Origin: Escherichia coli
GTDB taxonomy: Bacteria; Pseudomonadota; Gammaproteobacteria; Enterobacterales; Enterobacteriaceae
NCBI RefSeq assembly: GCF_017348835.2
Contig: NZ_CP071375.1
Length of the DNA: 64,000 nucleotides
Strand: one strand, 5' to 3'
Below are positions 27,301 to 36,300 of this stretch, piece after piece. The stretch's first letter is position 1. Each line of letters begins with the position of its first letter. The position numbers are program-made.

Positions 27301-30300
27301 AATGGTAACTGAACGTACGGCCCATAACCCACGCCATAATGACCAAGCGTACTACCGAAGCGGTGAGGTTCAGTCCGTTGCAGTTTCGGGTTCGCCATCC
27401 CTGCAACATCAATAAAGCCGCCCATCCCCAAAATGGTGTTCAGGAAAAAGCGGGTAAAGTGGACCATCCCCTGATAAGGGTCGCCCTGCAAGAAGTAGTT
27501 AACCATCACCGCAGGTTCTTCAAGGTTGCCGGTAAAGTTGCTCAAACCGTTACGCGCCGGTTGCGGAACATAATCACGCCAGGCGACAGCGACCGGTCGA
27601 ACAATATACGGGTCTAGTACGTTGAAGTTGAAGTTGTACATGGTGCGGTTGAACCCTTCTAACGGGTCAGAACGCCCTTGCTGATCTGTACCGGAACTCG
27701 CACACCCCACCAGAAGCGTAGTTCCCAGAGCAAGCGCCGACAGGCGAAGCTTCATAAATGTCTCCCTGTTTTTTTATGGCTTATGCAGTTTGCCATCCAT
27801 GACGGAACGATACCGTATCCGCCTGTTTAGGTGTGGGCGATTGTAACAGCACGTCAACTGATGTCCAGACGCCCTGATTTGCTGATTTGATCATAGCCTG
27901 GTAATCGCCGCCCTGTAGGCTACTTGATTCTATGGAAACAGAAAAAGGCAAACGCGGCCTTTTCTACATTTTCAGAGTAACTCCCGCCAGTTGCGAGCAA
28001 AAAAGCCGCTACGCTTTAGCTATACGTGCTAATTCAAGAGAAGAGACCATGGACAACGACAAAATTGATCAACACAGCGACGAAATTGAAGTTGAGAGCG
28101 AAGAAAAAGAGCGTGGCAAAAAAATAGAAATAGATGAAGATCGACTCCCCTCCCGGGCGATGGCAATTCATGAGCATATCCGCCAGGATGGTGAAAAAGA
28201 GCTGGAACGCGACGCAATGGCACTACTGTGGTCAGCCATTGCGGCGGGTCTGTCGATGGGCGCTTCATTACTGGCAAAAGGGATATTTCATGTCGAACTG
28301 GAAGGTGTGCCGGGCAGCTTCTTGCTGGAGAATCTCGGTTATACCTTTGGTTTTATTATCGTCATTATGGCCCGCCAGCAATTATTTACCGAAAACACCG
28401 TGACTGCGGTACTACCCGTCATGCAAAAACCGACAATGAGCAACGTTGGCTTACTTATGCGGTTATGGGGCGTCGTGCTGCTGGGTAATATTCTCGGGAC
28501 AGGTATTGCGGCGTGGGCATTTGAATATATGCCAATCTTCAATGAAGAAACTCGCGATGCATTTGTCAATATCGGCATGGATGTGATGAAGAACACCCCC
28601 AGCGAGATGTTTGCCAACGCGATCATTTCCGGCTGGCTGATCGCCACTATGGTATGGATGTTTCCTGCAGCGGGTGCGGCAAAGATTGTGGTGATTATAT
28701 TGATGACCTGGCTTATTGCCCTGGGTGACACCACCCACATCGTTGTCGGTTCTGTTGAAATCCTCTATCTGGTGTTTAACGGCACGCTGCACTGGAGCGA
28801 TTTCATCTGGCCCTTCGCACTACCTACTTTAGCGGGGAACATCTGCGGCGGCACCTTTATCTTCGCGTTAATGAGTCATGCACAGATCCGTAACGACATG
28901 AGCAACAAGCGCAAAGCAGAAGCACGCCAAAAAGCAGAACGTGCGGAAAACATTAAGAAAAATGATAAAAACCCGGCATAAATGGCGAGGGTTTAAGCAA
29001 TCGAGCGGCAGCGTACTTACCCCGCAGTCCATTAGCGGGTATACTCATGCCGCATTGTCCTCTTAGTTAAATGGATATAACGAGCCCCTCCTAAGGGCTA
29101 ATTGCAGGTTCGATTCCTGCAGGGGACACCAGATACCCTTCAAACCAAATCTACCTTCACCCCGTAAAAGATGGGTTTGGCAGCACACTTGCCCTATATC
29201 TACTCATTTTTACTGCAACAGGTTGAAATCTCAGCACTGTCAGAAAGCGCTGATGACTAAACAGCCCTGGGCCGGGCGATGTAACCATCACACAGAATCC
29301 TGATAGCGAAATATGGCGTGACTCGATACTTCACTCCGCAATGCATTCCTTGATGAATTCGCAGGCCCGTAATACACGGGACAGGTCGCTGAATGACGAC
29401 AATGTCCTGGAAATCAGCGAACCGTGTATCCGGAGTACATTTGAGCGACTGTACCAGAACATGAATGAGGTGTTTGGATTAGGCGATTATTAGCAGGCCT
29501 AAGCATTTTAGTATTATTATTTTCCGGTTGAGGGATATGGAGATATCGACAACAACCGGAAAAAGTTTATGTCTATATTGCTGAAGGTACAGGCGTTTCC
29601 ATAACTATTTGCTCGCGTTTTTTACTCAAGAAGAAAATACCAAATAGCAACATCAGGCAGACAATACCCGAAATTGCGAAGAAAACTGTCTGGTAGCCTG
29701 CGTGGTCAAAGAGTATCCCAGTCGGCGTTGAAAGCAGCACAATCCCAAGCGAACTGGCAATTTGAAAACCAATCAGAAAGATCGTCGACGACAGGCGCTT
29801 ATCAAAGTTTGCCACGCTGTATTTGAAGACGGATATGACACAAAGTGGAACCTCAATGGCATGTAACAACTTCACTAATGAAATAATCCAGGGGTTAACG
29901 AACAGCGCGCAGGAAAGGATACGCAACGCCATAATCACAACACCGATAAGTAATGCATTTTTTGGCCCTACCCGATTCACAAAGAAAGGAATAATCGCCA
30001 TGCACAGCGCTTCGAGTACCACCTGGAATGAGTTGAGATAACCATACAGGCGCGTTCCTACATCGTGTGATTCGAATAAACCTGCATAAAAGACAGGAAA
30101 GAGTTGTTGATCAAAAATGTTATAGAAAGACCACGTCCCCACAATAAATATGACGAAAACCCAGAAGTTTCGATCCTTGAAAACTGCGATAAAATCCTCT
30201 TTTTTTACCCCTCCCGCATCCGCCGCTACGCACTGGTGATCCTGGTCTTTAAAACACATGTTGATCATCATAAATACAGCGCCAAATAGCGAGACCAACC

Positions 30301-33300: not shown

Positions 33301-36300
33301 AATTCACCAAATTTGCTTAACCAGGATGATTAAAATGACGCAATCTCGATTGCATGCGGCGCAAAACGCACTAGCAAAACTTCATGAGCACCGGGGTAAC
33401 ACTTTCTATCCCCATTTTCACCTCGCGCCTCCTGCCGGGTGGATGAACGATCCAAACGGCCTGATCTGGTTTAACGATCGTTATCACGCGTTTTATCAAC
33501 ATCACCCGATGAGCGAACACTGGGGGCCAATGCACTGGGGACATGCCACCAGCGACGATATGATCCACTGGCAGCATGAGCCTATTGCGCTAGCGCCAGG
33601 AGACGATAATGACAAAGACGGGTGTTTTTCAGGTAGTGCTGTCGATGACAATGGTGTCCTCTCACTTATCTACACCGGACACGTCTGGCTCGATGGTGCA
33701 GGTAATGACGATGCAATTCGCGAAGTACAATGTCTGGCTACCAGTCGGGATGGTATTCATTTCGAGAAACAGGGTGTGATCCTCACTCCACCAGAAGGAA
33801 TCATGCACTTCCGCGATCCTAAAGTGTGGCGTGAAGCCGACTCATGGTGGATGGTAGTCGGGGCGAAAGACCCAGGCAACACGGGGCAGATCCTGCTTTA
33901 TCGCGGCAGTTCATTACGTGAATGGACTTTCGATCGCGTACTGGCCCACGCTGATGCGGGTGAAAGCTATATGTGGGAATGTCCGGACTTTTTCAGCCTT
34001 GGCGATCAGCATTATCTGATGTTTTCCCCGCAGGGAATGAATGCCGAGGGATACAGTTACCGAAATCGCTTTCAAAGTGGCGTAATACCCGGAATGTGGT
34101 CGCCAGGACGACTTTTTGCACAATCCGGGCATTTTACTGAACTTGATAACGGGCATGACTTTTATGCACCACAAAGCTTTGTAGCGAAGGATGGTCGGCG
34201 TATTGTTATCGGCTGGATGGATATGTGGGAATCGCCAATGCCCTCAAAACGTGAAGGCTGGGCAGGCTGCATGACGCTGGCGCGCGAGCTATCAGAGAGC
34301 AATGGCAAACTCCTACAACGCCCGGTACACGAAGCTGAGTCGTTACGCCAGCAGCATCAATCTATCTCTCCCCGCACAATCAGCAATAAATATGTTTTGC
34401 AGGAAAACGCGCAAGCAGTTGAGATTCAGTTGCAGTGGGCGCTGAAGAACAGTGATGCCGAACATTACGGATTACAGCTCGGCACTGGAATGCGGCTGTA
34501 TATTGATAACCAATCTGAGCGACTTGTTTTGTGGCGGTATTACCCACACGAGAATTTAGACGGCTACCGTAGTATTCCCCTCCCGCAGGGTGAGACGCTC
34601 GCCCTAAGGATATTTATCGATACATCATCCGTGGAAGTATTTATTAACGACGGGGAAGCGGTGATGAGTAGTCGAATCTATCCGCAGCCAGAAGAACGGG
34701 AACTGTCGCTTTATGCCTCCCACGGAGTGGCTGTGGTGCAACATGGAGCACTCTGGCAACTGGGTTAGCATAATATCAGGTGGAACAACGGATCAACAGC
34801 GGGCAAGGGATCCGCGTCACACTTCCCCCTTCACGACCTTCAATAATATGCAATGCAGCTTCCCGCCCGATAATGTCATGTGGAAGCTGAATTGTGGTCA
34901 GCGGCGGTAAAAACAGATGCCCGACGCCAACCAGATTATCAAAGCCCATTACGGCGACATCCTGCGGGATACGTACCCCCTTCGCCAGGAGAACCTGATA
35001 AGCCACAAAGGCTGCGCGATCGTTACCACATATCAGAACATCAAAATCTGGTTTGCCCGATTTGAAGTGGTCATTGAGTAAACTTGCGAGATCGGTGTAG
35101 TGATCATCACCTGTTGCCATGTGAAATTGTTTCACCTCAGCCAGATCTCGTCCAGCATCACGCCAGGCCTGCTCAAATCCCTGCCGACGATACCCTGTTA
35201 CCAACGCACTTTCCGGTAGCCAGAAGCATAACGGTTGACGATAGCCCGCCGCGAGCAAATGCTGTGTTGATTCATATTGTGCAGTGTAATCATCAGGGAT
35301 ATAACTGGGTAACGCTGGGTCATCCGCCACACAGTTCGCCAATACAATATTTTCACCATACAGAGACTCAGGCAGCGTGATATGTCGCAGCCCCATTGTA
35401 GTATAGATAATGCCATCCGGACGGTGGGCAAGCAGCTGACGTGCCGCGCGGGCAGCGTCATCTTCAGAAAAAATATTGATTAAAAAACTATTCCAGCCGA
35501 ACTCGCTGGCGGTTTGCTCAATGGCAAGCAGAATATCAACAGAGAAAGGAGTGGTAGCAGTGTCCTGCGCCAGCACGGCGAGAGTCGACGGCTTACGTCC
35601 TTGAGCGCGCATCTTACGGGCGGAAAGATCAGGAACATAATTCAGGGTCTGGATTGCCTGCAATACGCGGTCACGCGTTGCAGGACGCACAGATTCTGCA
35701 TTATGCATCACCCGGGAGACTGTCATCATCGACACTCCCGCCAGGCGTGCGACATCCTTTAATGAAGCCATACCCAAGCCGTTTGTCGTAAAACGGGCAC
35801 TGTAGCAGAAACAGACGTCACTGGCGAGATCCAACGCCCTATCACCTGACACGGCAATACAATAAAAAATAACAATAATTCCCGGCCAATTGTCCCCAAT
35901 TCCGCCTCTGTTCTCGCCAACGAGTAACCATATAGGCAAGTAAGTAAAACATGCCAACTGGCATCGCCAACCTGGAGAAGAAAATATAAATATGGATCAT
36001 TGTGCTGCCGCTGTATCCCGACATCAGCCCGGAAATTATTGCGATTGCTATCGGTTCAGGTGCAATTGGCTGCACTATCGTTACGGACTCGCTTTTCTGG
36101 CTGGTGAAGCAATATTGCGGCGCTACGCTCAATGAAACATTTAAATACTATACGACAGCGACATTTATCGCTTCAGTCGTCGCTCTGGCGGGCACATTCC
36201 TGCTGTCATTTATCATCTAAGCGCAAAGAGACGTACTATGGAAAACGCTAAAATGAACTCGCTCATCGCCCAGTATCCGTTGGTAAAGGATCTGGTTGCT

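Follow-up and report, generated by a model that had tools for sequence, protein, structure and literature searches.

The interval between argW and dsdA in the window (the whole 64,000-nucleotide stretch of Escherichia coli DNA analyzed here) carries, we conclude with high confidence, the common csc allele of this locus, with a dsdA gene that should be silent and a strain-specific insertion sequence (IS) that hits cscK and likely also blocks cscB. The csc/dsdX arrangement itself is already known; the csc-for-dsdCX layout was described by Jahreis 2002, Moritz & Welch 2006, Connolly 2015 (PMC4366372) and O'Boyle 2020 (PMC7486766), and an earlier, sequence-only reading of the window was right to call it contextual.

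The csc block replaces dsdC and most of dsdX between argW and dsdA

Alignment to K-12 with blastn showed that homology ends on the left at 29131, the exact 3' end of argW, and resumes on the right at 36003, which corresponds to nucleotide 1121 of the 1338 in dsdX. The flanks (mlaA, yfdC and argW on the left; dsdX nucleotides 1121-1338, dsdA, emrY and emrK on the right) are 98.3-98.5% identical to K-12. The replacement of dsdC and the 5' part of dsdX by csc, proposed in the sequence-only reading, is therefore now mapped to the base. The order across the locus is argW, a spacer with a DUF4942 relic, cscB, cscK interrupted by the IS, cscA, cscR, a dsdX stub and intact dsdA:

29057..29131, plus strand: argW, tRNA-Arg(CCU) (ARAGORN; Rfam tRNA, 63.4 bits)
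29132..29572, plus strand: spacer, 441 bp, which accompanies the csc block
29275-29476: DUF4942 gene relic, ~200 bp (PGAP, "DUF4942 domain-containing protein")
29341-29493: 50-aa ORF inside the spacer
29573..30820, minus strand: cscB, sucrose:H+ symporter, 415 aa, ORF intact (NCBIfam TIGR00882)
30892..31102, minus strand: cscK 3' fragment, codons ~236-304 (fructokinase profile positions 239-302 of 302; PGAP pseudogene)
31103..32412, plus strand: IS629/IS1203-like IS3-family element, 1310 bp (inverted repeats; transpos_IS3; ALIL)
31157-31483: orfA of the IS
31483-32370: orfB of the IS
32416..33119, minus strand: cscK 5' fragment, codons 1-235 (fructokinase profile positions 2-239)
33120..33334: divergent cscKB/cscA control region
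33335..34768, plus strand: cscA, sucrose hydrolase (invertase), GH32, intact (TIGR01322; PGAP cscA)
34776..35771, minus strand: cscR, LacI-family repressor of the csc regulon, 331 aa, intact (LacI-family matches; PGAP)
35772..36002: cscR upstream region up to the csc/dsdX recombination junction (36002/36003)
36003..36220, plus strand: dsdX 3' stub, last 72 codons and stop, equivalent to K-12 dsdX nucleotides 1121-1338
36238..37566, plus strand: dsdA, D-serine ammonia-lyase, 442 aa, intact (TIGR02035, 810 bits)

All of the elements listed in the sequence-only reading are present at or near the positions it gave them, but the gap that it left empty between argW and cscB holds the 441-bp spacer with its DUF4942 relic. 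Its picture of K-12, with dsdC much further on past the prophage, also needs correction, as only about 100 bp separate dsdC from the end of the CPS-53 prophage, which is 10.2 kb long. Neither an integrase ORF between argW and dsdA nor a repeat of the argW 3' end across 28900-36400 was found, and the csc block is a fixed, immobile islet rather than a tRNA-associated integrative island.

Full-length DUF4942 genes share ~75% identity with bases 144-345 of the spacer; the full-length gene occupies the terminal position in a CP4-like island adjoining tRNA-Ser. The spacer is found at a coverage of at least 80% in 2,623 genomes, and, judging from the position described in PMC7486766, its relic is probably the counterpart of EDL933 Z3622.

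Apart from cscK, the csc genes are intact. CscB scored 593 bits against TIGR00882, the oligosaccharide MFS transporter family (cutoff 220), and differs from the annotated cscB product of Tig207 by two amino acids; CscA scored 477 bits against TIGR01322 (cutoff 356), differing from Tig207 by five amino acids and lacking stop codons; and CscR differs from annotated CscR by one amino acid. The control region contains two copies of the palindrome GTTAACGTTAAC (33222-33240 and 33285-33303), which are putative CscR operators; operators of this kind are described where PMC11251922 cites Jahreis 2002.

At the right-hand end, the stub matches positions 374-445 of the 445-position DsdX equivalog profile (E=1.6e-42) and has 98.6% amino acid identity to K-12 DsdX residues 374-446, such that residues 374-445 alone persist of the full-length GntP-family permease. 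Both the profile and the K-12 alignment support the dsdX origin that had been assigned to the frame at 35990..36220; the comparison with an intact dsdX that the same reading proposed shows, however, that identity to K-12 starts at 36003, not 35990. As that reading held, dsdA is intact, being 98.4% identical to K-12 over its full length with the PLP-binding lysine K118 conserved.

The reported lack of dsdC, which encodes a LysR-type activator and is transcribed divergently from dsdX, was also borne out. The best tblastn match to dsdC in the window had E=1.6. Using the chromosome of strain PE164 as a proxy (4 mismatches to the window in 64 kb, none within the locus), a megablast search with a composite cscA-cscR plus dsdC query matched one place, and there with its csc part only, and dsdC had no plasmid match in the 20,395 records of 5,426 complete E. 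coli genomes.

The csc allele is common and most likely arose once

Of 5,426 complete E. coli genomes, 2,690 have an intact match to a 100-bp probe for the csc/dsdX junction, and 2,734 have dsdC. The csc layout is thus one of two common alleles at the argW-dsdA hotspot. The junction sequence is identical in the window, Tig207 and O157:H7 NE92, which are phylogenetically distant strains, and this identity, together with the number of genomes that share the junction, points to a single ancestral event. One ancient event would have set a ~5.6-kb block (the spacer with its DUF4942 relic, cscB, cscK, cscA and cscR) right after argW and would have removed dsdC together with the dsdC-dsdX control region and the initial 1,120 nt of dsdX, with the resulting allele inherited by about half of sequenced E. 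coli.

The near-equal frequency of the two alleles could also be read the other way, with the csc layout ancestral, dsdC and full-length dsdX a later gain of the other allele, and nothing lost here. We consider this highly improbable. The dsdX 3' fragment has neither a start codon nor a promoter and is joined at a sharp breakpoint to unrelated sequence, which is the signature of deletion or replacement, and this truncated stub effectively refutes an ancestral csc layout. The phylogeny of dsdA, moreover, tracks the core genome, suggesting that dsdCXA is ancestral (PMC4366372).

An IS629/IS1203-like element interrupts cscK

The sole strain-specific feature of the locus is the IS in cscK, which is a recent insertion. 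The element has TG...CA termini and imperfect inverted repeats of 25 nt that are 88% complementary, and it is flanked by a 3-bp target duplication, AAA (31100-31102 and 32413-32415). Its DDE transposase scored 312.6 bits against transpos_IS3, and the Rfam ALIL frameshift pseudoknot was found at 31438-31554 (120 bits); PGAP annotates a "programmed frameshift" and names the element only as "IS3 family transposase". Alignment to an uninterrupted csc locus located the IS junctions. The insertion point is at nucleotide 707 of the 915 in cscK. The interrupted frame runs into the IS and stops at 32373, and the 3' fragment bears the GAGD ATP-binding motif. The fragments scored 397.8 and 92.3 bits, both under the 450-bit cutoff for the PfkB-family fructokinase. 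cscK in the window is therefore a csc member by descent and a pseudogene, not an intact CscK gene.

Among complete genomes, the cscK::IS junction is contiguous only in PE164, and the PE164 record has 31 matches to the left IS end, making it conceivable that a repeat was collapsed or misplaced among ~30 genomic copies during assembly. That the insertion is such an artefact is nonetheless extremely improbable: the IS is complete, with a clean target duplication on both sides, deletion in silico of the IS and one AAA copy gives back the exact cscK frame (a 304-aa ORF with one amino acid difference from the reference), and the RefSeq complete genome agrees with the window across both junctions.

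The insertion likely impairs sucrose use through polarity on cscB

Transposition of the 1310-bp IS into cscK, a recent event, removes the C-terminal ATP-binding motif of the kinase. Growth on sucrose reportedly does not require cscK. Knocking out cscK in E. coli W leads to secretion of fructose according to Sabri 2013 as cited in PMC6616217, and together these points suggest that the likely damage is polarity on cscB. Sucrose use requires both cscB and cscA, and within a single operon cscB is 3' of cscK (PMC3938415); in the window, cscB is also 3' of the IS within the cscKB operon. Lying antisense inside the cscKB transcript, the IS would most likely also block this essential permease gene, and Csc-dependent sucrose use would then be lost or strongly reduced. 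The earlier suggestion that sucrose use is now being lost is reasonable, with its mechanism refined here to predicted polarity on cscB.

A phenotypically mild insertion, with cscK dispensable, cscB still transcribed, and a sucrose-positive strain that perhaps leaks fructose, is unlikely, though it deserves some weight. Fructose secretion by the E. coli W cscK knockout, as PMC6616217 cites it from Sabri 2013, implies that sucrose is taken up and split, and cscB, cscA and cscR are all intact here. Transcription of cscB could start at a promoter that is cryptic, internal or derived from the IS, or could reach the gene by read-through. A loose promoter scan 3' of the IS gave weak promoter-like minus-strand matches (31035-31008 and 30918-30891), but these match at just 8 of 12 positions; a stricter scan was blank across the locus, known csc promoters included, and the two scans carry no weight either way. 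The outward -35 of IS3-family elements generally sits in their right inverted repeat, the end that would here point to cscA rather than cscB. In addition, 1.3 kb of untranslated antisense IS in the transcript of a single cscKB operon (PMC3938415) is expected to be polar. Polarity on cscB remains the likely outcome.

The orphan dsdA should be silent

With its DsdC-activated promoter and dedicated permease gone, dsdA would be at most weakly expressed and non-inducible, and the same losses would predict D-serine sensitivity and no growth on D-serine. That dsdA is not induced without dsdC, as the sequence-only reading supposed, and that D-serine is toxic have been shown experimentally in strains of the same layout (PMC7486766, PMC4366372), and representative O157:H7 genomes share the junction of the window. 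In enterohemorrhagic E. coli (EHEC) with the csc layout, dsdA is silent, and only deletions bringing it under cscAp or z3622p reactivate it (PMC7486766); EHEC and EPEC with the truncation do not grow on D-serine unless a plasmid supplies dsdA (PMC4366372); and E. coli W, which has csc, has lost D-serine use (PMC3032704). By extension from these strains, dsdA should be silent in the strain studied here and the strain should be sensitive to D-serine. Some basal DsdA is possible, since the 235 bp kept upstream of dsdA cover the region of the reported dsdA promoter, placed 115 bp upstream of dsdA (PMC7486766).

It seems doubtful that this orphan dsdA is still usefully expressed, with partial D-serine detoxification kept. 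Expression could come from a basal promoter within the stub of dsdX, from cscA by sucrose-induced read-through antisense to cscR, or through another regulator. From the stop codon of cscA to the dsdX stub, no convincing plus-strand terminator is present, and a hint of residual selection is that the gene is intact here and kept by more than 98% of E. coli (PMC4366372). EHEC wild types with this layout, however, are D-serine sensitive with low dsdA reads and no growth on D-serine (PMC7486766, PMC4366372), and the signal of reporter fusions in the wild-type arrangement stayed low unless a deletion drew cscAp or z3622p near (PMC7486766).

The predicted phenotype of the strain, with a silent dsdA and polarity on cscB, is no use of D-serine and, probably, no use of sucrose through Csc, which helps phenotype prediction; the strain, a pig isolate, falls in the csc/dsd-negative half of the species and leaves current understanding unchanged. 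As a metabolic trade-off at a recombination hotspot, the exchange of dsdCX for csc is a textbook example, and it goes some way towards explaining the avoidance of D-serine-rich sites, among them the bladder, by attaching-effacing and diarrhoeagenic E. coli.

Comparison with known loci and elements

The IS in the window shares with IS629 and IS1203 its length, TG...CA repeats, orfA/orfB -1 frameshift with ALIL, and 3-bp duplication, and it is 96.1% identical at the nucleotide level to an O157:H7 IS1203 copy (51 substitutions). Other IS629/IS1203-family copies lie in cscK in the O157:H7 NE92 group, in cscB in O111 95NR1 and the pig isolate Res13-Lact-PEA14-20, and in the cscK-cscA intergenic region in CEC13091, and five independent IS sites were seen in the cscKB-cscA unit among complete genomes. 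Between the window and the other IS-hit csc loci, the insertion sites and target duplications all differ, indicating independent insertion events, and the IS copies are 4-6% divergent. Decay of csc through IS elements is known in Shigella (PMC11251922), and Shigella and some STEC resemble the window in having cscK or cscB interrupted by an IS while cscA and cscR are intact. The cscK insertion is a small extra data point for this ongoing decay. The recurrence might reflect selection rather than neutral IS expansion, either against permease or csc expression in certain gut-pathogen lineages or through IS rewiring of cscA and downstream dsdA, akin to the laboratory deletions that rewired dsdA expression in O'Boyle 2020 (PMC7486766); we regard this idea as improbable.

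The K-12 dsdCXA locus (argW, CPS-53, dsdC, dsdX, dsdA) and the window both have an intact dsdA. K-12, however, has CPS-53 (10.2 kb), dsdC and full-length dsdX, and the window has csc in place of all three. The closest parallels are the csc alleles of E. coli EC3132, W and O157:H7 EDL933, which have the same gene order and likewise no dsdC. O157:H7 NE92, CEC13091 and ERL04-3476 differ in having a prophage between argW and the spacer, which the window does not have. What sets the window apart from the known csc-allele strains is the splitting of cscK by an IS at a site found in no other complete genome.

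Replacement of dsdC and most of dsdX by csc genes

The window carries genes for sucrose use between argW and dsdA, where the sequence-only reading had described csc genes in place of dsdC and most of dsdX, leaving dsdA without its activator. Gene families were assigned by NCBIfam, and the RefSeq annotation agrees with these assignments.

Features of the argW-dsdA interval (window coordinates, strand, feature)
29057-29131, plus: argW, tRNA-Arg(CCU)
29132-29572, plus: spacer, 441 bp; PGAP annotates a 50-aa 'DUF4942' ORF at 29341-29493
29573-30820, minus: cscB, intact
30892-31102, minus: cscK 3' fragment
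31103-32412, plus: IS3-family element, 1310 bp
32416-33119, minus: cscK 5' fragment
33120-33334, no strand: divergent control region with two GTTAACGTTAAC palindromes
33335-34768, plus: cscA, intact
34776-35771, minus: cscR, intact
36003-36220, plus: dsdX stub, last 72 codons
36238-37566, plus: dsdA, intact

Neither stop codons nor frameshifts interrupt cscB, cscA, cscR or dsdA, whose products are 1-6 amino acids off those of a reference csc strain, and DsdA keeps the PLP-binding lysine K118. An Rfam search of 27000-39000 returned no non-coding RNA besides the tRNA and the frameshift pseudoknot of the IS.

In K-12, essentially as the sequence-only reading described it, argW is followed by a prophage (CPS-53, 10.2 kb) and, ~100 bp past its end, by dsdC, dsdX and dsdA. 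By blastn against the K-12 argW-emrK region, the left flank of the window is 98.5% identical through 29131, the final base of argW, and identity (98.3%) restarts at 36003, which corresponds to nucleotide 1121 of the 1338 in dsdX; the interior, between these two positions, has no match to K-12. The frame at 35990-36220, read as a dsdX remnant, is indeed dsdX-derived from 36003 on: the stub matches positions 374-445 of the 445-position DsdX profile (E=1.6e-42) and is 98.6% identical in amino acid sequence to K-12 DsdX residues 374-446. The replacement of dsdC and 5' dsdX by csc is therefore real, was interpreted correctly, and maps to 29131 and 36003.

The window corresponds, in reverse complement, to 1398522-1462521 of the chromosome of PE164 (NZ_CP114128.1), a strain from pig (diarrhoea and blood, Nanjing), and differs from the RefSeq PE164 sequence by four single bases in 64 kb (window/PE164: 11087 A/G, 11476 A/G, 18525 C/T and 54537 A/G), none of them in the csc/dsd locus. 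It therefore comes from a different version of the assembly or from an isolate nearly identical to PE164. Elsewhere in the window, a hypothetical gene of low GC content (33-35%), coding for 357 aa, sits between fadL and mlaA (25532-26605, plus strand), in the position of yfdF in K-12. Its protein has different WP accessions and lengths in PE164 and in Tig207, another strain with the csc arrangement, so this position looks like a variable slot.

Absence of dsdC and distribution of the two alleles

The best tblastn match of K-12 DsdC in the whole window reached only E=1.6. To extend the search, a composite query joining cscA-cscR of the window to K-12 dsdC was run at megablast sensitivity; PE164 ranked first with a single matching place, covering the csc part alone, so its chromosome is without dsdC at that sensitivity. 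F2_81, a candidate near-isogenic strain, is 100% identical over cscA-cscR. Among 5,426 complete E. coli genomes dsdC occurs in 2,734, chromosomally in every case, and no plasmid in this collection carries it. The activator gene reported missing by eye is thus absent from the window and, at megablast sensitivity, from the PE164 chromosome, and is plasmid-borne in none of the genomes of the collection.

A contiguous match to a 100-bp probe with the csc|dsdX junction in its middle was obtained in 2,690 of the 5,426 genomes; the argW-proximal spacer was found in 2,623, and the entire 8.6-kb region, at a coverage of at least 80%, in 2,627. Either cscA-cscR or dsdC is present in 5,352. Together with the counts for the junction and for dsdC, this indicates that the two alleles divide the species roughly half and half and are nearly mutually exclusive. 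By a rough estimate, which assumes that all junction-bearing genomes have cscA-cscR, both alleles would occur together in about 70 genomes (~1%). In alignments of the right junction, the csc|dsdX breakpoint is identical to the base in the window, Tig207 and O157:H7 NE92, and so sharp a breakpoint, common to distant lineages, argues for a single replacement in an ancestor rather than repeated events.

Expected expression of dsdA

Published experiments concern the csc layout in other strains, and the junction sequence of the window is the same as in representative O157:H7 genomes. In the EHEC strains EDL933 and TUV93-0, dsdC is gone and dsdX is truncated by cscBKAR; dsdA is described as silent in EHEC of this layout, activated only by spontaneous deletions that place it under the z3622 promoter or, where CscR is lost, under cscAp (PMC7486766). 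Truncated EHEC and EPEC do not grow on D-serine except when dsdA is supplied in trans (PMC4366372), and E. coli W, which carries csc, no longer uses D-serine (PMC3032704). Given this silence and these phenotypes, we infer that dsdA in the window would be expressed at a basal level at most and would not be inducible.

An insertion sequence in cscK

The element in cscK has 25-nt imperfect TG...CA inverted repeats, encodes an IS3-family DDE transposase from orfA and orfB through a programmed -1 frameshift (Rfam scores its ALIL pseudoknot at 120 bits), and is flanked by a 3-bp target duplication, AAA. It is 96.1% identical to an IS1203/IS629 copy of O157:H7 NE92 and 94.4% identical to a copy in another pig isolate. 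Insertion after nucleotide 707 of the 915 in cscK splits codons 1-235 off from the C-terminal part with the GAGD nucleotide-binding motif. In silico, excising the element together with one of the AAA copies gives back a CscK of 304 aa that differs from the reference by one substitution, so the insertion is the only lesion in cscK and presumably recent.

A 100-bp probe across the left IS junction matched contiguously in PE164 alone; in eight O157:H7 genomes the match was broken in two by a similar IS ~80 bp away. The left end of the element has 31 matching places in the PE164 record, and this abundance indicates a sizeable expansion of IS629/IS1203-like elements in this pig isolate.

Both cscB and cscA are essential for sucrose use, and cscB lies directly downstream of cscK in a cscKB operon (PMC3938415). 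With cscK knocked out, E. coli W still split sucrose and leaked fructose (Sabri 2013, as cited in PMC6616217). The IS separates the cscKB promoter from cscB by 1.3 kb of untranslated antisense sequence, and, since cscB is essential and downstream while loss of cscK leaves sucrose cleavage in place, the chief damage is expected to be polarity on cscB. A strict consensus scan of 30700-36400 found no promoter-like site, even at the known csc promoters; the best sites in a looser scan had 8-of-12 matches.

Insertions of the IS629/IS1203 family also interrupt csc in other complete genomes, at separate sites and each with its own target duplication, and are thus independent. The O157:H7 NE92 group has one in cscK (8 genomes; locus L004, 4074-5383), Res13-Lact-PEA14-20 (L005, 3068-4377) and the O111-type strain 95NR1 (L007, ~1280-2590) each have one in cscB, and in CEC13091 (L008, ~3240-4550) the insertion lies between cscK and cscA. 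The cscK of 95NR1 (L007, 3649-4563) is annotated with an internal stop, so that one operon bears two lesions. All IS629-like copies seen in csc face one way; we do not take this as an orientation bias, because the search joins same-strand pieces only and insertions in the opposite orientation would be missing from its high-coverage matches.

A possible trace of an earlier element at argW

The possibility that the csc block is a bounded integrative island was considered and rejected: it contains no integrase gene, and no second copy of the argW 3' end, as a candidate att site, occurs in 28900-36400. The block is therefore not a bounded mobile island at present. Within the spacer, ~200 bp (29275-29476) align at ~75% identity with an internal segment of full-length DUF4942 genes; this relic lies directly 3' of argW, and in ~2,600 genomes it goes together with the csc block. 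One full-length example is the terminal gene of a CP4-like island adjoining tRNA-Ser, preceded in order by antirestriction, RadC-like, YeeU/CbtA, DUF5983 and DUF957 genes. To judge from the relic, a CP4-type element may formerly have occupied or accompanied the argW site. The position of the relic makes it a probable equivalent of Z3622; the promoter of that gene is able to reactivate dsdA after deletions (PMC7486766).

In ERL04-3476 (L009, 737-10284), argW and the DUF4942 relic are separated by a P22-like prophage remnant that has intS, ejection and needle genes and is itself interrupted by IS1203. This shows that argW, upstream of the fixed csc block, is still used for integration.

Comparison with described csc loci

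The locus is already known; the sole new item is the insertion site in this strain. In its whole structure the locus agrees with the csc allele already described for the argW-dsdCXA hotspot. The IS disruption in the window fits a known pattern of csc decay, seen in Shigella, where IS1, IS3 or IS4 usually break cscK and cscB while cscA and cscR persist (PMC11251922).
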